A stretch of 64,000 nt of DNA from Patescibacteria group bacterium (lineage in GTDB: Bacteria > Patescibacteriota > UBA1384 > JACPKC01): the NCBI GenBank assembly GCA_050944875.1, contig JBMNRW010000004.1, positions 1,304 to 65,303 of the forward strand. Direction: 5' to 3'. Numbering within the stretch: position 1 is the first letter of the stretch; each line of letters begins with the position of its first letter. Made by a program: the position numbers and the translations under genes. Below are positions 6,596-52,521 of this stretch, in pieces. The notes below the pieces were generated by a model that was given only the letters and a program-made list of their open reading frames with translations, was not told the DNA's origin and ran no database searches.

Positions 6596-9429
<2,834 letters not shown>

Positions 9430-44344: not shown

Positions 44345-44375
44345 AACGCCTCCCCGAAGGGAGGCGTTCGTTATA
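44345..44375. terminator. Bidirectional terminator (aacgcctccc / gaag / ggaggcgtt)
   Basis: Read directly. Confidence 0.65.
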
Positions 44376-44380
44376 TCTCC

Positions 44381-45595
44381 TTACTGATCAATGAAGATCG
44401 AAGAAGAGCGAAGTTGTTTGCCGTTCGCAAGCTCAGCTTGCGCATAGATTGCCTTGACGCCCTGAGCACGGAGCGTATGAACGGTAAAGTCGTGACCGAA
44501 GTTCCGCTCGGTAGCACCGAAGCTGTGCGAACGAATCACACGGTCCTGCTCTGGTGACTGCCCCACCGAAACCAACACCATCTGACGGACCGCCACGGGC
44601 CCGGTCACGTCGGCATGGAGTAACAGCGAGTGGCCAGAGAGCGAGATTGTGTCGCCCATCAAAGCGACGGCATCGGTATCCTGGTCAAGCCAGCCGATCA
44701 GGCGAATCGCCATATCGCGATCCTCTGAGAAGCAGGTTCGCCGGGCGGCAAAAGCTTCGTACACCCCGTCCATGGAACGGTGTCGGACGAACGCAACTGT
44801 GTACGGTCCCGCCTTGTAGGGCATAAGATGCCGATCACTCGACCCGCAGGCCCCCGGCCGCCAACCTACTCGGATGAGCTGGCGGAATCCGGCCTCGTTT
44901 GAAGCCCGTATCCCCGCCGCCGGGTCACCGGGACCGTAGTACCCACGCGCGCCGTGGCTCGACAGCTCGCAGAGCGCCATCTGGCGGACGAGTACTTCGA
45001 GTGGCGGACGAGCAAAACCGCCAAACGTACTCTCCACCGCGTACCGTTCGGGGTGCGCGAACCCGCCAATGATCCACGGTCGCTGAGCAACAACGCCGAG
45101 GAGCTCAAAGAACTCCGAAGCAATAACCTCGGGTTCCCCACCCTGCAGGTGATGCCCAATGAGCTCGCTCGACCGGTAGATCAGGATATGACCGCCGCCC
45201 TGGATGTACGCCGGGTTGGCGAAGATACCCGGATCCCCTTCGTCCGGAATGCCGGTCCACTCAGTACCGGTGTCAAAGAGCAGCCCCTCAGCCTGAAGCT
45301 TGGTCGTCAGTCGTTGAAGCGACTGCGCCTCTTCAAGGGCTACTTGTTCGCCGTGGTCTGTGAGGATGAAGAAGTCCTGCGTCCGGAGCGCTGCCCGTGC
45401 AACCTCCTCGGGTGACGCTTGGATCCCCTTCGCATCAGAGAAGTCGGAGTGGGCATGTGGGTCGCCCCAGAGCGGACGAACGCCAGCTACACCAAACACC
45501 TCTTCGACAGTTGGAACAAACGCTGCGGAAACAGGAGTTACGATGGAATAGCAGAGCATGGTGAGAACTGCATAAGCGAAGAACATGGACCGCAT
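44381..45595 (-). CDS. Secreted PHP-domain metal-dependent phosphoesterase
   Basis: Signal peptide; GDPHAHSDFSDAKG PHP motif I; 404 aa. Confidence 0.55.
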   Translation of the reverse strand: MRSMFFAYAVLTMLCYSIVTPVSAAFVPTVEEVFGVAGVRPLWGDPHAHSDFSDAKGIQASPEEVARAALRTQDFFILTDHGEQVALEEAQSLQRLTTKLQAEGLLFDTGTEWTGIPDEGDPGIFANPAYIQGGGHILIYRSSELIGHHLQGGEPEVIASEFFELLGVVAQRPWIIGGFAHPERYAVESTFGGFARPPLEVLVRQMALCELSSHGARGYYGPGDPAAGIRASNEAGFRQLIRVGWRPGACGSSDRHLMPYKAGPYTVAFVRHRSMDGVYEAFAARRTCFSEDRDMAIRLIGWLDQDTDAVALMGDTISLSGHSLLLHADVTGPVAVRQMVLVSVGQSPEQDRVIRSHSFGATERNFGHDFTVHTLRAQGVKAIYAQAELANGKQLRSSSIFIDQ

Positions 45596-45677: not shown

Positions 45678-46517
45678 TCAAGCCGTGAGCGATCGGAGGA
45701 TCTCTATGTTCGGGGAGTCCGGCCCGTTCCCGTCTTTACCCGGCACCTCGAGAATCCAGGGGAGTTGGGCGAGGAGTGGGTGTGCAGCGAGGGCGCGGAA
45801 GCCGTCGAGACCAATGTACCCTTCTCCAAGATTCTCGTGCCGGTCTCTCCCCTCACCAAGCGCGAACTTCGAGTCGTTCGCGTGAATGACGACGAGGTTA
45901 CTCACACCAACCTCACGATCGAACTCCTCAAGCGTCTGCACAACCCCAGCTGACGACCGGATATCATACCCGGCCGCAAACGCATGGCAGGTGTCAAAGC
46001 ACACCTTCACGCGAGGCGATTTAACAGCGCGGAGCATCTCCCCGAGCTCACTAAATGCATCACCGAGCGTGCCACCGTACCCAGCCGCATTCTCAATGAT
46101 GAGCTGACTCTCGCCAGGTGCGCGGCGAAGGATCTCCCCCATTACACCCGCAACGTCACGGAGCGCCTCTGCCTGGTCGCGCGCCTTTCGTGAACCCGTG
46201 TGGTAGATCACACCCTGCGCGCCGATTCGATCGGCCACCTGAAGGGCGTAGCTCAGCGCGTCGATCGACTTCTCGCGGAGCTCGGCATTGTCCGTTGCGA
46301 GATTCACGAGGTAGAGGGCATGGATGAAGACCGGTCCGAGGCCACGCCCACTGACCGCTGCCCGAAACGCAGCGACCGACTCATCGGTGATTGTCGTCTT
46401 GCGCCAGCTTTGCGGTGGCGCGATGAAGAGCTGGATCGCTGTTCCGCCGATTGCCTCAATGTTCGTCGCGGCGTTTTGAATGCCCCCCGCAGCTGACACG
46501 TGCGCGCCGATAATCAC
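45678..46517 (-). CDS. nfo: Endonuclease IV (AP endonuclease)
   Basis: MIIGAHVSAAGG...IHALYLVNLA...VIYHTGS...IENAAG...CFDTCHAFAAGYD...VIHANDSK. Confidence 0.9.
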   Translation of the reverse strand: MIIGAHVSAAGGIQNAATNIEAIGGTAIQLFIAPPQSWRKTTITDESVAAFRAAVSGRGLGPVFIHALYLVNLATDNAELREKSIDALSYALQVADRIGAQGVIYHTGSRKARDQAEALRDVAGVMGEILRRAPGESQLIIENAAGYGGTLGDAFSELGEMLRAVKSPRVKVCFDTCHAFAAGYDIRSSAGVVQTLEEFDREVGVSNLVVIHANDSKFALGEGRDRHENLGEGYIGLDGFRALAAHPLLAQLPWILEVPGKDGNGPDSPNIEILRSLTA

Positions 46518-46518
46518 G

Positions 46519-47283
46519 CTACGCTCCCAAGAGCTTCAGGATGTCATTGTGGAGCCTGCCATTCGACGCGACGGCTGTTGACGTCGCGAGCTTCATCGGC
46601 TGCCCCTGCCAATCGGTGACTGTACCGCCTGCCTCTTCGACAATAAGCTTCGGCCCAACCCAGTCCCACGGCTTCAAATGGTGACCAACGAAGACATCGT
46701 GGATGCCGTGGGCGACCGCCATAAAGTTGAGCGCCGGGACGTCTCGATAGCTCAGCTGTCGAACGACCTTAGCTAGCTTCACCGCCGCGCTAATTGCCTG
46801 CTCCCTCGCTTCGATCGGCCCGAAGCCGCCGTACACGAATGCCTCAGTAAGGTTCGCCTCAGTGCGCGCGTGCATCTTCCGGTCCTGGTAGAACGCCCCG
46901 GCGCCCTTCGTTGCCCAGAACAGGTGTCGCCGCTCAGGCATAGAAACCGCGGCCACCGTCGGCTCACCATTCTCTACCCAAGTGACACTCGTGCCGTACT
47001 TATCGTTGCGGGTAGAGAAATTCCCCTCGCCGTTCAAGCCGTCAATGAGCCAGAACGACGTCGCGCTCCCGAGTTCACCACAGTTCCTTCCCCAGATCAC
47101 CTCGTTCGGGTAAATCTGCTTTAGGAAGATTAAGATCGTCTCGCGAGCAGCCACTTCGGCTGCAGCCGCATCGATTGCTGGACCACCGCTCTCCCAGAGC
47201 GCAAAGCGACGAGCGAGCTCATCTCCAGCAATGAAGGCTGCCTGCTTCGCGACCTGGAGTCGGGTTTGAAGGTTTGTTGCCAT
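46519..47283 (-). CDS. Inositol-monophosphatase-family phosphatase (SuhB/CysQ-like)
   Basis: WLIDGLNGEGNF (WxIDPxDGT-like), ...GPKLIVEEAGG...; start at MATNLQ. Confidence 0.72.
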   Translation of the reverse strand: MATNLQTRLQVAKQAAFIAGDELARRFALWESGGPAIDAAAAEVAARETILIFLKQIYPNEVIWGRNCGELGSATSFWLIDGLNGEGNFSTRNDKYGTSVTWVENGEPTVAAVSMPERRHLFWATKGAGAFYQDRKMHARTEANLTEAFVYGGFGPIEAREQAISAAVKLAKVVRQLSYRDVPALNFMAVAHGIHDVFVGHHLKPWDWVGPKLIVEEAGGTVTDWQGQPMKLATSTAVASNGRLHNDILKLLGA

Positions 47284-47296
47284 ACAGTCCTTTCTT

Positions 47297-47986
47297 CTAC
47301 GTAATACTACCACCACGACGCGTGAGGTGGTCATGCGACGAGCCATGGCGCTGCTCGTGCTCAGCTTGATAGTCAAAGGTACGAACACCTACTTCGACGT
47401 TGCCGAAGTACTTCACCTGCTCGAACAGCGGCTTCGTCTTCGCCTGCTCAGGTTCAGGATTCAGTGCAAGGAACGACCGGGTGAAGAGGAAGTATGAATC
47501 ACTCGACACACTGTTCTTGAGGAGGCGATGGGCGAGGATGACGTCCGACCCAACGAGCTTAACAAAGGGGCCGATCTCATTCACGACAAACTCACCAAAG
47601 TGAACGATGAACTTCATTGAGATACATTCGAGCACCTGGCTTTCGCTTGTCTCTGCCGCCTTGAGCTCCTCCATGGCGTGGTAAAACGCGTCGGCGTACG
47701 CCTCAAGCTGTTGAAGTGTGGCTCGGTACAGCGCCGCCCCCTCCTCGCCCGGCGCGTACACGAAGAGGGCGTCTCCTTCGATTTCATTGACGATGAACGC
47801 AGGCGTCGTCCCCCTGAATACCCGATCGGTAATGTGGTGGACGATCTTGGCGCTAAACTCCGCCTGCGCAGAGGTCAGGAGATCGGTGTACCCGGAAATA
47901 TCTGCCAGCAGGAGCACGCCCGAGGAGCGCCGTCCGACAAGCGCCTGCTGCCTCACTGCTGCCGCAGCACTGTCGTACTCAACCAC
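47297..47986 (-). CDS. Minimal class-III nucleotidyl-cyclase-like protein (resembles DUF2652)
   Basis: LLLADISGYT (FADIxGFT-like first metal Asp), NEIEGDALFVYAP (second Asp), KFIVHFGEFVV, KLVGSDVILAHRL (GDxVNxAxR-like but Asn replaced by Ile). Confidence 0.5.
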   Translation of the reverse strand: MVEYDSAAAAVRQQALVGRRSSGVLLLADISGYTDLLTSAQAEFSAKIVHHITDRVFRGTTPAFIVNEIEGDALFVYAPGEEGAALYRATLQQLEAYADAFYHAMEELKAAETSESQVLECISMKFIVHFGEFVVNEIGPFVKLVGSDVILAHRLLKNSVSSDSYFLFTRSFLALNPEPEQAKTKPLFEQVKYFGNVEVGVRTFDYQAEHEQRHGSSHDHLTRRGGSIT

Positions 47987-48617
47987 GCCGCCGCCTGCGT
48001 CCCCGCCGCCCCTTCCGTTCGCTCACGAGCTCGCGGTACGGGCCGTAGAACTTCGCCGCGACTTCGTTCTCGATGAGTACGGTTTCGTCGGCGGCTGCCT
48101 TGATGCCGCGATTGTATCGGGCTGCGAAGCCAAGGTACACGACCCTGACGCCTTTCTCTTTGGCGAGGTGAATGACCGGCTGGAAGTCCGAGTCCGAGCT
48201 GGCGAGAATGACGGTCGACACCTTACCTTCGTAGATATCTCGCAGAATTTCGACGGCGATCGAAACGTCAACGCCCTTCTCCTCAAACTGTACGTCTTCG
48301 CCACGACCCCGCGCCCTGACGGCGCCAGCGATGACGTACCGGAACCCTTGCACCTCAAGCTGCGCCTTGAGCGTCGCTTCACGGGCGACGAGCTCTTCGG
48401 ATTTCTCCACGGTTTCCTTGTGCGGAATAACACGGGCGAGGTAAATGCTCGCGAGACTGACGTCAACCTTTTGAAAGACATGGTTCAAGAGTCCCCAGAG
48501 ATCGTACTTCGTGAGATCGATCTCCTGGACGCCGCGCCGGCGAAGCACTTCGCGAATCCGGCGCACAAAGTTCTGGCCATCGATGTAGAGATGGGTGTGT
48601 TTACCCTGAGTGTGCAT
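47979..48617 (-). CDS. NYN-domain (LabA-like) putative ribonuclease
   Basis: LYIDGQNFVRR...KGVDVSIAVEIL...VILASSDSDFQPVIHLAKEKGVRVV; stop overlaps the cyclase-like start by 8 nt. Confidence 0.62.
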   Translation of the reverse strand: MHTQGKHTHLYIDGQNFVRRIREVLRRRGVQEIDLTKYDLWGLLNHVFQKVDVSLASIYLARVIPHKETVEKSEELVAREATLKAQLEVQGFRYVIAGAVRARGRGEDVQFEEKGVDVSIAVEILRDIYEGKVSTVILASSDSDFQPVIHLAKEKGVRVVYLGFAARYNRGIKAAADETVLIENEVAAKFYGPYRELVSERKGRRGRRRRRG

Positions 48618-48748
48618 GAGTCTATCTTACGCTCTTCCGCCAGGCAGCAGAACATACCTTAGCGATATGACAGGGAAGTATACCGCATTTCCTCATCCTA
48701 ATCAATGGCGTCGGTCGCAGTAGCGCGCATCCGAGCGAGATACCCCTT

Positions 48749-51367
48749 CTACTTCCCGTGGCACTTCTTGAACTTCTTGCCCGATCCACATGGACAGAGA
48801 TCGTTTCGGCCGACATGACCGTAGCCACTCGGTGCGACAACGCTCTGCATGGTTTCCGTCGTCGTCTTCCCACCCGATCGGACTGTCAACGTCACACCAC
48901 TTCCTGGCTCGCGTTGAGGCTGTGGCAGTGTATCGCGCACTTGGTCGAAACCGCCCGGGTTCGCTTCGCTCGGCCCCTGCAAGACTACCTGAGGTGACTG
49001 GACTGCTACCTCAGGCACAGCCTGTTTCACCTCGAGCCTGAGGAGCATCTCGACAACTTGGTTCTCGATCTCATCTTTGAGCGCCTGGAACAACCCGTAC
49101 GCCGTATCTTTGTACTCGACGAGCGGGTCCTTTTGCGCGTACCCGCGTAGTCCAATCCCGTCACGGAGGTGCTGCATTGTTGAGAGGTGCTCAACCCAGA
49201 GCGTGTCAATCGTACGGAGGTAGATGAGACGTTCGAGCTTGCGGAAGTTCACCTCACCGACCTCGCGAACTTTCGCGTCGAACGCCCCGTGCTCGTCCTC
49301 ATGGAGCAGGTCGCGGATTTCTTCGTGGAGCCACGTATCCTGTTCCGCATCGAGCTCGAGGATACGGTGCCGCTTCCGGTAGACAACTTCGCGCTGCGCG
49401 TTCATCACGTCGTCGTACTCGACGAGGTGCTTGCGAATGTCGAAGTTGTGGCCTTCGACGCGGCGCTGCGCCTGTTCAATGGAGTTCGAGACGATCTTGT
49501 GCTGGATCGGCTCGTCGTCAGGCAAGCCAAGGCGATCCATGACCGCTTTTAGTCGAGCGCCGCCGAAGATCCGCATGAGGTCGTCTTCCATTGAGATGTA
49601 GAACTGGGAGCTCCCCGGGTCACCTTGGCGGCCAGCGCGACCTCGGAGCTGGTTATCAATGCGTCGTGACTCGTGGCGCTCCGAGCCGATAACAGCCAGC
49701 CCACCCGCTTCAATTACCATCCGGTGCCGCTCCTCCCAAGCTGTGACATCGGCCTTCGTCGCGTCCGCTCCGGGTTTTCGTCCACCGAGGAGGATGTCGA
49801 CGCCGCGACCAGCCATATTCGTTGCAACGGTGACACGACCCGGCTCACCAGCAGCCTCGATAATCTTCGCCTCGCGCTCGTGCTGCTTGGCATTCAGTAC
49901 GTCGTGCGCAATCCCCTCTGCCTTAAGGAGCTTCGAGAGTTGTTCGGACTTCGCAATCGATGCCGTGCCGACGAGCACCGGTCGGCCGGCGTCACGGAGT
50001 CGGCGAACCTCCGCAGCAATCGCCCGGAACTTCGCGGCCTCAGTTTTGTAGATAACATCAGCGTGATCGACGCGAACAACTGGGCGGTGCGTCGGAATGG
50101 CGAGTACCTCGAGGTTGTAGATCTTCGCGAACTCCTCCGCTTCGGTCTCTGCTGTCCCGGTCATGCCGGCGAGCTTGCTATACATCCGGAAGAGGTTCTG
50201 GAAGGTGATCGTGGCCAGTGTCTTTGACTCCTGCTTAACGGGAACTCCCTCTTTCGCCTCAATTGCCTGGTGGAGTCCCTCGGAGTACCGTCGGCCAACC
50301 ATGAGCCTGCCGGTGAACTCGTCGACGATGACGACTTCGTCGTCGCGGACCACGTAGTCGCGGTCACGCTTGAACAGCGCTTTTGCCTTCAGCGCTTCCT
50401 CCAGGTGGTGGACGTACTGGACCGTGTTCGGGTCGTAGATGTTCTCGACGCCGAGCGCACGCTCCATCTTTGCCACTCCCTCGTCGGTCAAGCCAACGTG
50501 GCGCTCCTTCTCGTTTACCGTGTAGTCTTCGTCTTCACGGAGTTTACTCACGAACGCTGAGAACTTCGCGTAGAGCTCACCCGACTCCTCTGCGGCGCCA
50601 GAGATGATGAGTGGCGTCCGGGCTTCGTCAATGAGAATCGAATCGACCTCGTCGACGATCGCATAGTGGAGTGGGCGCTGCACCAGCTGCTCTGGTGTGA
50701 GCGCCATGTTGTCCCGAAGGTAATCGAAGCCGATTTCATTGTTCGTGCCATAGGTAATGTCGGCGGCGTACGCTGCCCGACGCGAAATCGGCACTAAGGT
50801 AGGCCAGTCTTCGTGGAGCGTAGCGCGGAGTTCGTCCGACTGCTCAGCGATCGGGACGTACTGCCAGCTCTGTCCTTGCTGGCCCATCGCTGCCGCCGTA
50901 AGGCCGAGCGCCGAGTAGATCGGGCCCATCCAAGTGAGTCCGACCTTTGCCAGGTACTCGTTCGGCGTGACGAGATGCGCGCCGCAACCAGCGAGCGCGT
51001 TCAAGACGAGCGGGAGCGTGGCGACGAGCGTCTTCCCCTCGCCCGTACGCATCTCCGCGATCATGCCACGGTGCAAGACGATACCACCGATGAGCTGCTC
51101 ATCGAAGTGACGCATGCCGAGCTGGCGTTGGGATACTTCTCTCACGATCGCAAATACTTCAGGCAGCAGCTCGTCGAGAAGCTGTGCTCGCCTCGGTTCG
51201 TCCGTCGACTGCACGCGCGCCTTGAGCGTACCGAAGCGACTACGAAGCGCGGCGTCATCAAGCGCTTCTAACTCCTGACCGATGGTTCCAATTTGGGCGA
51301 TCGTCGTGGAAAACTTTTGGATTTCCCGAGCATTCGGGTCGCCGAACAACCGAGTGAGAAAGCTCAT
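48749..51367 (-). CDS. secA: Preprotein translocase ATPase SecA
   Basis: 872 aa; MRTGEGKTLVATLP Walker A, DEAD-like and helical scaffold, C-terminal zinc finger CPCGSGKKFKKCHGK. Confidence 0.96.
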   Translation of the reverse strand: MSFLTRLFGDPNAREIQKFSTTIAQIGTIGQELEALDDAALRSRFGTLKARVQSTDEPRRAQLLDELLPEVFAIVREVSQRQLGMRHFDEQLIGGIVLHRGMIAEMRTGEGKTLVATLPLVLNALAGCGAHLVTPNEYLAKVGLTWMGPIYSALGLTAAAMGQQGQSWQYVPIAEQSDELRATLHEDWPTLVPISRRAAYAADITYGTNNEIGFDYLRDNMALTPEQLVQRPLHYAIVDEVDSILIDEARTPLIISGAAEESGELYAKFSAFVSKLREDEDYTVNEKERHVGLTDEGVAKMERALGVENIYDPNTVQYVHHLEEALKAKALFKRDRDYVVRDDEVVIVDEFTGRLMVGRRYSEGLHQAIEAKEGVPVKQESKTLATITFQNLFRMYSKLAGMTGTAETEAEEFAKIYNLEVLAIPTHRPVVRVDHADVIYKTEAAKFRAIAAEVRRLRDAGRPVLVGTASIAKSEQLSKLLKAEGIAHDVLNAKQHEREAKIIEAAGEPGRVTVATNMAGRGVDILLGGRKPGADATKADVTAWEERHRMVIEAGGLAVIGSERHESRRIDNQLRGRAGRQGDPGSSQFYISMEDDLMRIFGGARLKAVMDRLGLPDDEPIQHKIVSNSIEQAQRRVEGHNFDIRKHLVEYDDVMNAQREVVYRKRHRILELDAEQDTWLHEEIRDLLHEDEHGAFDAKVREVGEVNFRKLERLIYLRTIDTLWVEHLSTMQHLRDGIGLRGYAQKDPLVEYKDTAYGLFQALKDEIENQVVEMLLRLEVKQAVPEVAVQSPQVVLQGPSEANPGGFDQVRDTLPQPQREPGSGVTLTVRSGGKTTTETMQSVVAPSGYGHVGRNDLCPCGSGKKFKKCHGK

Positions 51368-51395
51368 GCGCACCTTTCGCTAGTAGAGACGTATA

Positions 51396-52104
51396 CTACG
51401 CAGCGCCATCAGTCCTGTCCAGGTGTACTTTGCCCAACTGCCACTCAGCGCTGCCGCATTCGTGGACAGCTTCGACGTGTTCGCAACTCCCATCATCAAT
51501 CTGAGAAGGAGCGTCAATGAGCTGATCCATGATCATGGCGTTCTCTGAGAGTCGGTCAAGAACGTACTGCTGGCGCCCATTGAGCACATCAGTCGCAGAT
51601 ACATCGCCTACTCGGAGCTGCTGCGTGCGCTCGACGCGCACCCCGTTACTCACTGTCCCCCGATCAACCGTGACGACGTAGTTCGACTGCATCCAGTTCG
51701 GGTTACGGATCCCGTAGCGAATTGACGTACTCACCGTGATACGCAGCCAAGAGAGCTGGCCAGAGGCATTGTGTCCGTGGGAGATGCACAGTCCCGTATG
51801 CGCCCGGCTCCGGCCGAGTCCACATCCCTGCTCCGTCCAGTCTGCCTCCGACTTACAGTCGCTCTCGAACGATGGGTCTGGCAAATGGATGTACGTCAGC
51901 GTACCGTCACGCCAATCGGTCGCCCAACTCGGCCGACGAGCTAACTGACTATGGTTGTACGACACTTCACTGTTCACCGCACCGAGCTCAAAGAGCGCGT
52001 CGAGGAAGCCATCGCATTGCGTGAGGAATGCTCGCACGCGCTCTCGCTGGACAGGCGACCACTCCCCCCCGTTTCCGCCCGTAGGGACGGAGGTGTTCCA
52101 TACC
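51396..52104 (-). CDS. Hypothetical protein, start unresolved (no in-frame ATG between the hpf stop and the first internal Met; GTG/TTG start or pseudogene)
   Basis: Open frame of ORF 51396..52217 fills the hpf-secA gap; the N-terminal part of the ORF overlaps hpf. Confidence 0.3.
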
Positions 52105-52521
52105 TTACTGCGATGGCCGACGACGGGGGAAGCGAAGGAGGCGCTTCGGGGCGGACAGCAAGGCAGAAATCCTGGCCGCAATACGCTCCTTCCGCTCAGC
52201 ACTTCGTGACCGCTCAATCAGTCGGTCGTGACGTTTGCGCAAGTATCGCTCCGCCTTATCGTAGAGGCGGTCGAGCGCCGTTCGAAAATCTTCTGCGGCG
52301 ACCTCAACATGGAAGGTCGTCGCTTCGTATGGGATAGCAACGGCAACGTGCGCGTAGTGTGTCCTCCCCTTACGGGCGCGGTGCACATGGTCAAGCCGGA
52401 GGTCGACGTGCGACGCGGCCGGTAGGTACCGCTCCAACTTCTGGAACTGTCGGAGCGCAGCCTCTTGGACTGACCGGTTTACCCTGTGCTGCTTATCGAG
52501 GATGCGGAGCTCAAGTTTCAT
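52105..52521 (-). CDS. hpf: Ribosome hibernation promoting factor / RaiA-family protein
   Basis: MKLELRILDKQHRVNRSVQEAALRQFQKLERYLPAASHVDLRL...YAHVAVAIPYEATTFHVEVAAEDFRTALDRLYDKAERYLRK. Confidence 0.75.
   Translation of the reverse strand: MKLELRILDKQHRVNRSVQEAALRQFQKLERYLPAASHVDLRLDHVHRARKGRTHYAHVAVAIPYEATTFHVEVAAEDFRTALDRLYDKAERYLRKRHDRLIERSRSAERKERIAARISALLSAPKRLLRFPRRRPSQ

Follow-up and report, generated by a model that had tools for sequence, protein, structure and literature searches.

A NYN–DUF2652–IMPase-fold–endonuclease IV operon of Candidatus Berkelbacteria as a candidate housekeeping cluster with a facultative cyclase-like gene

The four-gene operon considered here, which lies entirely on the minus strand of the window (the whole 64,000-nucleotide stretch of DNA that was analysed), combines a NYN/LabA-like nuclease, a DUF2652 class-III nucleotidyl-cyclase-like protein, an IMPase-fold protein and endonuclease IV (Nfo). 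The bacterium itself is an uncultured member of the CPR. We lean, at somewhat better than even chances, towards reading the operon as a co-transcribed housekeeping cluster peculiar to one lineage, Candidatus Berkelbacteria (Patescibacteria/CPR), and not as a dedicated signalling or defence module. It most likely serves nucleic-acid processing or repair, with the cyclase-like gene as a facultative accessory. The argument turns on the existence of close relatives that have the other genes of the operon but not the cyclase-like one, and on the loss of catalytic residues from the IMPase-fold protein; together these point to a housekeeping cluster and away from the second-messenger or defence system envisaged in the original prediction. 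The most useful by-product of the analysis is a small IMPase-fold clade whose active site is degenerate throughout and whose members always occur with a NYN protein and endonuclease IV, which we present as a candidate pseudoenzyme/nuclease partnership.

Gene order, junctions and transcription signals

The open reading frames of all four genes are found as first reported. The gene for the 212-aa NYN/LabA-like PIN-fold nuclease (47979-48617) runs by 8 nt into the GTG start of the gene for the 229-aa DUF2652 protein (47297-47986; junction sequence GTGGTTGA), and 13 nt separate the stop of the latter from the ATG, at 47283, of the gene for the 254-aa IMPase-fold protein (46519-47283). Both junctions had been read correctly in the original prediction, and the tight same-strand layout bears out its description of a compact operon. 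It erred at the third junction, where the IMPase stop was held to overlap the nfo start: a single nucleotide lies between the stop codon TAG (46521-46519) and the GTG (46517-46515) with which nfo (45678-46517; 279 aa) begins.

At 82 nt downstream of nfo, and sharing its strand, lies a gene for a 404-aa PHP/CehA-McbA-like metallohydrolase with a hydrophobic N-terminus (44381-45595; NCBIfam NF038032, E 8e-13, below the cutoff of that model), which may be the last member of the transcription unit. By tblastn, homologues occupy the same position in two of the related lineages discussed below (L001, 48% identity; L003, 39%), and none was found at this position in L005, L093, L095, L097, L100 or L101. 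On the upstream side, the 131 nt that separate the secA stop from the NYN start contain a possible operon promoter, TTGATT-17-TATACT (48677-48705, minus strand); taken alone this site is weak because the consensus scan returned 2 sites against 1.1 expected. At the other end, a scan for terminator-like elements found a GC-rich perfect hairpin, AACGCCTCCC-GAAG-GGGAGGCGTT (44345-44368, unstranded), placed where the PHP-like and Fur genes converge, and it is likely to be a bidirectional terminator closing the unit. Rfam and tRNA scans detected no RNA elements within the operon. Its surroundings are of a housekeeping character (a PBP, two aminoacyl-tRNA synthetases, SecA, Fur and ZnuABC), with no signs of mobility or of a defence island.

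The encoded proteins and their active sites

The DUF2652 protein is a soluble, single-domain protein that is readily recognized by its family profile (Pfam PF10851, 73.7 bits against a cutoff of 22.1, E 1.6e-20). The class-III cyclase metal-binding scaffold attributed to it in the original prediction holds up: ADISGYT, EIEGDA, HFG and VILAHRL are all found, and the metal-binding Asp pair, D29 and D72, is invariant across 30 sequences of the DUF2652 subfamily. In an HMM alignment, ADISGYT and EGDA align with FADIEGFT and KILGDC, the metal-Asp motifs of the C1 domain of AC5, and E68 occupies the Lys/Glu specificity position with a guanylyl-cyclase-like Glu. The N-x-A-x-R motif reads I150-L-A-H-R154, in agreement with the predicted replacement of the catalytic Asn by Ile, and R154 is invariant in the subfamily alignment. 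The AF2 model (pLDDT 90.2) retrieves only class III cyclases among its best 50 Foldseek matches in the PDB (E down to 1e-9, TM 0.5-0.77), with CyaC (1wc0), Cya2 (2w01), sGC, Rv1264 and Rv1900c (1ybt) in the lead; to such canonical enzymes the fold matches at prob 1.0 and TM ~0.6-0.77, with 13-19% sequence identity. The protein resembles the class III cyclases in fold and metal-Asp motifs but differs from them in this low identity, in carrying Ile where the transition-state Asn is expected and in lacking a match to Guanylate_cyc (PF00211) at E≤0.1; mammalian AC C1 domains were reached by the DUF2652 subfamily profile only at E ~0.03. It would probably be active, as a nucleotidyl cyclase or as a transferase.

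The family to which this protein belongs is already described. DUF2652 proteins were predicted to be cyclase-like, with the Asn-to-Ile replacement in mycobacterial members, from a data set of Actinobacteria, Bacteroidetes and Proteobacteria, and it was pointed out that some active cyclases, Rv1900c among them, also lack the Asn (Ramakrishnan et al., 2016, Biol Direct 11:27, PMC4886424). The protein at hand has the metal Asp pair, the Arg, the Ile for Asn, the solubility and the class-III fold in common with those proteins, but it is a divergent CPR member from a very small CPR/DPANN branch outside the 2016 data set, a branch that accounts for just 3 of 1527 representatives at 50% identity (E≤1e-30). 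It is further set apart from other DUF2652 proteins by a conserved C-terminal extension of its own of ~60 aa and by the absence of their common C-terminal SRPBCC/polyketide-cyclase domain, and the Berkelbacteria-type members lack the CxCxxC insert of the sister sub-clades. Beyond the 2016 paper and a database listing, a literature search found nothing on PF10851 or on this gene combination.

The NYN protein matches PF01936 at 60 bits against a cutoff of 24.2 (E 5e-16), and its acidic residues D13 (YIDGQN), D117 (KGVDV) and D142 and D144 (SDSD), which match the NYN active-site pattern and by family would be catalytic, are invariant among 24 aligned sequences. Profile searches against solved structures gave spurious Rossmann-like matches only and a fold search was needed: the AF2 model (pLDDT 89.5), which consists of one domain with an Arg-rich C-terminal helix and an inserted long helix and hairpin, matches VPA0982 (2qip, E 1.6e-8) and the NYN domain of MARF1 (6fdl) in Foldseek. 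The protein shares the Pfam match, the fold and the invariant acidic pattern with LabA-like/NYN proteins but departs from them in the inserted elements, in the Arg-rich C-terminal helix, in lacking OST-HTH/LOTUS or other accessory domains and in forming a narrow clade, whose homologues amount to just 24 clusters, each at least 51% identical; a metagenome scan with the NYN profile contributed just two loci, and one of these had been found before. The original prediction had allowed this RNase-fold protein the role of a sensor; across Pfam, the AF2 model and Foldseek, however, no CARF, SAVED, cNMP-binding or other sensor domain was recognized. It is best pictured as a single-domain, PIN-like, putatively metal-dependent endonuclease with an intact acidic site and an Arg-rich tail that would bind nucleic acid. 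The assignment of nfo as endonuclease IV is secure (TIGR00587, 247.7 bits against a cutoff of 129.65; AP_endonuc_2, E 1.9e-45), and by family its product would be a repair enzyme that acts as an AP endonuclease and cleans 3' ends.

The IMPase-fold protein was proposed to be a phosphatase degrading the signal. Its family is not in doubt (PF00459, 112 bits against a cutoff of 27, E 4.7e-32), with full-length homology to bacterial IMPase/SuhB/HisN proteins at 29-34% identity (E. coli SuhB, 2qfl/6tqn; 5zhh; 2pcr), but the NCBIfam equivalog models for HisN, SuhB-type IMPase and CysQ score it at 35-108 bits against cutoffs of 229-493. In the alignment to solved IMPases, the catalytic EE has become R-N and DPxDGT has become DGLNGE, with the first Asp of the latter and the WD motif kept. 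The stretch WLIDGLNGEGNF, which had been offered as an IMPase signature, is indeed present, but it is a degenerate version of W-x-I-D-P-x-D-G-T-x-N-F, a point that was overlooked. In a motif census, the site is degenerate in 17/17 members of a Berkelbacteria-specific clade of 17 clusters, whereas of the 103 family matches that come next all have an intact EE and 101 have DPxDxT. Across this clade (R/K)-(G/N/...) stands where the EE would be, Asn takes the place of the second Asp of DPxDGT, and Ala, Glu or other residues take that of the Thr, while ortholog alignments show D81, part of the phosphate-/metal-binding pocket, and the WD motif to be kept.

Given the loss of three canonical residues of catalysis or metal binding (Glu, Asp and Thr) from EE and DPxDGT, this protein is unlikely to be a canonical phosphatase, and most likely it cannot run the standard two-/three-metal reaction. 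Asn is still able to ligate Mg2+; hence, a residual or altered phosphatase activity is conceivable and may be present. More plausibly, it would serve as a partner without catalytic function or bind phosphorylated ligands, comparable to E. coli SuhB, which has a structural role with Nus factors. Caution is therefore advised where annotation pipelines label such proteins 'inositol monophosphatase' or 'histidinol-phosphatase'.

Conservation of the cluster and competing interpretations

We compared ten Berkelbacteria-type lineages, namely those of the window and of L001, L003, L005/L006, L098, L093, L095, L097, L100 and L101. The first five have the order NYN-DUF2652-IMPase-nfo; the remaining five have NYN-IMPase-nfo with no DUF2652 gene in the block and intergenic gaps of 2-168 nt. 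The block is contiguous in all ten at just 45-65% protein identity, with flanks that vary between lineages on both sides. Its NYN and IMPase-like genes, each restricted to the clade (24 and 17 ortholog clusters, respectively), are adjacent in 10/10 lineages save for the intervening DUF2652, which, when in the block, always lies exactly between them. The two arrangements can be found in close relatives: L095 (no DUF2652) and L005 (with DUF2652) share downstream genes and are 90% identical in NYN, 85% in the IMPase-like protein and 85% in Nfo, and in a neighbour-joining tree the DUF2652-bearing L005 is nested in a DUF2652-lacking group. In NYN, IMPase and nfo, pN amounts to 0.07-0.18 while pS, at 0.69-0.85, is saturated, and the comparison includes a pair with both members lacking DUF2652; because of this saturation of synonymous sites, dN/dS gave a finite ratio in a few cases only, and selection is otherwise read from pN and pS. 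The NYN and IMPase-like genes are under strong purifying selection in the DUF2652-lacking lineages, and the IMPase-like protein is equally conserved in those genomes. The evolutionarily constant unit would thus be the triad of NYN nuclease, IMPase-fold protein and endonuclease IV. DUF2652 appears to have been repeatedly lost or gained with its neighbours unaffected, which argues for a facultative accessory and not an obligate signal generator.

Besides the window, at least four Berkelbacteria-type lineages show the four-gene order. NYN, IMPase or nfo occurs within ~8 kb at 0/79 other DUF2652 loci from GTDB species of bacteria and archaea. When ORFs within 4 kb on either side of these 79 loci were clustered, nothing recurred apart from the DUF2652 gene itself and its antisense ORF artefact, and a conserved family-wide partner of DUF2652 was thus rejected. 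A phage origin was likewise considered, and a scan of viral contigs with the DUF2652 subfamily profile returned no relative.

The conservation of the core triad is not fully separable from inherited gene order because all instances come from one narrow clade. On a reading of pure inherited synteny, the four genes would be functionally unlinked, and dense, small CPR genomes would simply keep runs of genes downstream of secA. Consistent with this, secA lies upstream in the window, L001, L003, L005, L100 and L101, and so it does in L007 and L014, which are more distantly related; unrelated neighbours on the same contigs overlap or abut by a few nucleotides in like manner (S30AE/SecA/NUDIX in L001, MazG/Cupin/Maf in L003); and in other Patescibacteria (L007, L011) DUF2652 and nfo are adjacent or near each other without NYN and IMPase. 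However, a block that remains unbroken in ten lineages at such divergence while both of its flanks change, and whose clade-restricted NYN and IMPase-like genes stay together in all ten, is not readily accounted for by inertia. The same may be said of the overlap between the NYN stop and the DUF2652 start, which is kept in 5/5 DUF2652-bearing lineages (8, 8, 8, 8 and 4 nt). We hence regard pure synteny as rather unlikely, though worth taking seriously. The overlap suggests translational coupling, and its persistence argues for co-expression, which also speaks against a reading in housekeeping terms only; possibly, NYN and DUF2652 are functionally linked wherever the latter exists.

Such a link could be taken in either of two directions. 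In the original prediction, DUF2652 would synthesize a messenger, NYN would be its effector or sensor and the IMPase its degrader, in a stress or anti-phage module; if true, this would provide the CPR bacteria, of which little is understood, with a new cyclic-nucleotide signalling/defence architecture. The cyclase fold with its metal Asp residues and Arg, the intact NYN catalytic residues, the coupling-type overlap and the recurrence of the four-gene order in five lineages all fit this proposal, as do PADLOC matches of NYN, albeit weak and generic to the domain (HEC-09, 2e-10; NYN, 1e-8). Yet in half of the lineages the supposed effector and degrader persist under purifying selection with the generator missing from the block, the degrader has lost the canonical catalytic residues, the effector has no sensor domain and the partners are missing from every other DUF2652 locus surveyed. 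PADLOC returned no match for the DUF2652 and IMPase-like proteins, and membership of a defence system was rejected on these results; the viral-contig scan, which gave no relatives, and the housekeeping context also speak against the parallel with anti-phage or stress signalling. We consider this module very improbable.

The other direction takes the NYN-IMPase-like-Nfo unit as basic and has DUF2652 tune nuclease or repair activity, with its signal sensed by a dead IMPase-fold receptor or acting on NYN. The invariable position of DUF2652 between NYN and the IMPase-like gene and the conserved overlap are compatible with this, as is the retention by the IMPase-like protein of the fold, D81 and the WD motif while its catalytic residues are gone; pseudoenzymes that have turned into ligand binders keep the fold and part of the pocket and lose the catalytic residues. 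However, the IMPase-like protein is conserved just as well where DUF2652 is lacking, and the wider DUF2652 family has no such partner, and this reading too strikes us as improbable. The same low expectation attaches to its more specific form, in which some Berkelbacteria would have a DUF2652 signal, coupled to NYN and read by the dead IMPase-fold receptor, as a regulatory layer on an undescribed NYN-pseudo-IMPase-endonuclease IV unit. We therefore return to the housekeeping cluster with a facultative cyclase-like gene as the interpretation that we favour.

Relationship to known cyclase–nuclease systems

The placement of a cyclase-fold gene beside a nuclease gene in one operon is a feature that the Berkelbacteria-type cluster has in common with Pycsar, CBASS and the ancillary nucleases of type III CRISPR systems. 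It differs from them in that its cyclase-like protein has no PADLOC match and its nuclease no sensor domain, and its surroundings are those of housekeeping genes, with neither mobility signs nor viral relatives. Where those systems call for obligatory co-inheritance of generator and effector, the cyclase gene here is missing from sister loci, 5 of the 10 lineages having the block without DUF2652. The likeness to these systems lies in the juxtaposition of a cyclase fold with a nuclease, and the constant element of the Berkelbacteria-type cluster would be the pairing of the nuclease with a degenerate IMPase-fold protein and a repair endonuclease.

Gene run and its boundaries

The gene run is best interpreted as a Berkelbacteria-specific operon, with a constant core comprising a NYN nuclease, a degenerate IMPase-fold protein and endonuclease IV. 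In the window, it is transcribed from the reverse strand and follows secA (48749-51373), with genes for a 212-aa NYN protein (47979-48617; Pfam NYN, 5e-16), a 229-aa DUF2652 protein (47297-47986; Pfam DUF2652, 1.6e-20), a 254-aa IMPase-family protein (46519-47283; Pfam Inositol_P, 4.7e-32) and endonuclease IV (nfo, 45678-46517; NCBIfam TIGR00587, 247.7 bits). The next gene on this strand, 82 nt 3' of nfo (44381-45595), encodes a PHP/CehA-McbA-like metallohydrolase of 404 aa whose N-terminus is hydrophobic and signal-like. The Pfam and NCBIfam matches lie far above chance and bear out the domain identities of the original prediction. Its 8-nt overlap between NYN and DUF2652 (GTGGTTGA) and 13-nt spacing between DUF2652 and the IMPase-like gene are likewise correct, but the stop of the latter does not overlap the nfo start, being separated from it by 1 nt.

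A promoter-like TTGATT-17-TATACT lies in the secA–NYN interval, and a perfect 10-bp GC-rich hairpin (AACGCCTCCC GAAG GGGAGGCGTT, 44345-44368), which probably terminates transcription from both sides, separates the PHP-like gene from the convergent Fur gene; a search for RNA elements across the operon found none. The neighbors are housekeeping genes (a PBP, two aminoacyl-tRNA synthetases, SecA, Fur and ZnuABC), and the closest named relatives are Candidatus Berkelbacteria. Between seryl-tRNA synthetase and secA sits a 273-aa reverse-strand ORF (51396-52217) with no Pfam match, in a slot that holds an S30AE ribosome hibernation factor of ~140 aa in five relatives (L001, L003, L005, L100 and L101); this long ORF could be spurious or could have replaced that gene in this lineage.

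Conservation with and without DUF2652

The Berkelbacteria-type contigs L001, L003, L005/L006 and L098 show the same order as the window, NYN–DUF2652–IMPase–nfo (DUF2652 identity 54-65%), and the NYN stop overlaps the DUF2652 start in every one of these DUF2652-bearing lineages, the window counted (8, 8, 8, 8 and 4 nt). The partnership does not extend beyond this clade: in a GTDB scan with one genome per species, which yielded 537 DUF2652 relatives, NYN, IMPase or nfo was found within ±8 kb in one of the best 80 loci, a Berkelbacteria contig already seen, and in none of the other 79, among which ORF clustering recovered no recurrent DUF2652 neighbor of any kind. In other Patescibacteria the order is EVE–DUF2652–nfo (L007) or EVE–glyoxalase–DUF2652–MurB, nfo then lying at a distance of 4 kb (L011, L014), and Aenigmarchaeota show methyltransferase–DUF2652. 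In the aenigmarchaeal contig L008, the genes after DUF2652 encode a protein of 369 aa that matches RelA_SpoT (nucleotidyltransferase) faintly (6697-7806) and a Metallophos phosphoesterase (7798-8508), which is only a hint of a further nucleotide-metabolism gene beside archaeal DUF2652; L010 has a BSP-family gene in place of the RelA_SpoT-like one.

Homologs of the NYN and IMPase-like proteins are narrowly distributed, with only 24 NYN clusters, each at least 51% identical, and 17 IMPase-like clusters before a steep fall to canonical IMPase/HisN at ~32% identity. On their contigs, five more lineages (L093, L095, L097, L100 and L101) carry NYN–IMPase–nfo but no DUF2652, with NYN–IMPase spacings of 2 to 168 nt. 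L095, lacking DUF2652, and L005, possessing it, share downstream genes and are 90%, 85% and 85% identical in NYN, IMPase and nfo; in a tree of these three proteins concatenated, L005 is nested within a DUF2652-lacking group, a placement that requires a minimum of two losses or gains. Since pN is low (0.07-0.18) against a saturated pS (0.69-0.85), even for a pair of genomes both lacking DUF2652, selection must be preserving NYN and the IMPase-like protein even where the supposed signal generator is missing.

Both flanks change among lineages, upstream (Maf, ASCH, an RHS giant protein, DUF4153, an HD protein, or secA directly) and downstream (PHP-like, pyruvate kinase, Fur, HopA1 or ZnuA), which suggests that the block itself is held together. 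The PHP-like gene keeps its position in L001 (48% identity) and L003 (39%), and one of the other downstream genes takes its place in further relatives. The HopA1-family gene (PF17914; L100 7656-8510, reverse strand), whose family is familiar from type III effectors of plant pathogens, lies immediately 3' of nfo on the opposite strand of a 161-kb Berkelbacteria contig. The slot between secA and NYN/DUF2652 in relatives (L001 3738-5283; L003 3961-5272; L005 3070-5509; L007 600-3515; L011 1492-4923; L100 4685-5314) repeatedly holds small nucleotide house-cleaning or nucleic-acid modification genes (NUDIX, Maf, MazG-like, Ham1p, HD/YfbR-like, His_Phos_1, ASCH, EVE, tRNA_edit and the PhdYeFM antitoxin); in the window, NYN directly follows secA, with no such genes.

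Component proteins

The AlphaFold model of the DUF2652 protein (pLDDT 90.2) has only class III adenylyl/guanylyl cyclases as top PDB matches (E down to 1e-9), including CyaC, Cya2, sGC, Rv1264 and Rv1900c. In a 30-sequence alignment of the subfamily, D29 (ADISGYT), E68/E70-G-D72 (EIEGDA), K125/H129/G131 and H153-R154 are invariant, and in a profile alignment D29 and D72 align with both metal-binding Asp residues of mammalian AC5 C1. The transition-state Asn position, located by its distance from the Arg, is occupied by Ile150, as originally noted. These cyclase-like features are not new, because DUF2652 has been a predicted class III cyclase-like family since 2016, with the conserved Asp pair and Arg and the Asn-to-Ile change already described (PMC4886424); our literature search found no experimental characterization of any member. 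What is particular to the window protein is its branch within the family: 1527 representatives at 50% identity match it, only three of them below 1e-30 (a Berkelbacteria type, another Patescibacteria type and a DPANN archaeal type). Non-Berkelbacteria sub-clades of this CPR/DPANN branch conserve a C-x-C-x-x-C cluster (e.g., CQCGAC, CKCEFC) within the long linker from helix to strand (alignment columns ~138-152, window residues ~111-119); this possible metal or redox site has been lost from Berkelbacteria-type proteins, the window's included.

Relative to solved IMPases, residue-level alignments show that the window protein retains the W-D motif but has Arg-Asn for Glu-Glu and D-G-L-N-G-E for D-P-x-D-G-T. 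Across its clade (EE to (R/K)(G/N/..); DPxDGT to D(G/P/S/A)L(N)G(A/E/..)), Glu-Glu is absent in all 17 members, the first position being Lys or Arg, and the second Asp is Asn in 15 of 17; the next 103 homologs outside the clade have EE without exception and DPxDxT in 101. The NCBIfam equivalogs HisN, IMPase and CysQ all score the window protein far below their cutoffs. In the established IMPase mechanism, the residues at the degenerate positions (E70, D93 and T95 of the human enzyme) serve in catalytic metal binding and activation of the nucleophilic water. With these residues lost, the canonical phosphatase reaction is unlikely, and so is the proposed role as a signal degrader. The clade likely comprises pseudoenzymes, which more plausibly bind ligands or serve in some other non-catalytic way. 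Public labels for this protein and its orthologs (in L001, L003, L005, L093, L095, L097, L100 and L101) nonetheless read 'inositol monophosphatase family protein', 'myo-inositol...' and, in two cases, 'hypothetical protein'.

The NYN protein is modeled (pLDDT 89.5) as one domain whose C-terminal helix is rich in Arg; among solved structures, it resembles LabA-like VPA0982 and the NYN domain of MARF1. Its acidic residues D13, D117, D142 and D144 are invariant, and it bears no CARF, SAVED, cNMP-binding or other sensor module. PADLOC gave weak generic NYN-domain matches and none for the cyclase-like or IMPase-like protein, and we found no DUF2652-subfamily relative on viral contigs.

Competing readings of the operon

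The original prediction of a generator/effector/degrader module thus fails: DUF2652, the supposed generator, is dispensable, since five lineages keep the core without it; its link to the other genes is confined to one clade; the would-be degrader has a degenerate site and the would-be effector no sensor. The retention of the block against changing flanks, together with its co-restricted phyletic distribution, argues instead for a functional link within the core, which would probably constitute a nucleic-acid processing or repair unit, with DUF2652 as a facultative accessory, presumably co-translated with NYN in the lineages that have it. A serious rival to such a link is pure inherited synteny, as all the evidence is drawn from one clade. 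A regulatory connection between DUF2652 and the triad is possible, given the conserved start/stop overlap, but of low probability.

Among known systems, E. coli SuhB, an IMPase-family protein described in the cited accounts as having a structural part, alongside Nus factors, in transcribing and maturing rRNA (PMC4807359, PMC6614797, PMC6614801), offers a parallel for the IMPase-like clade, by analogy only. Nothing in the operon is far from known kinds, and its modest novelty lies in one point, a pseudo-IMPase clade always paired with NYN and nfo.
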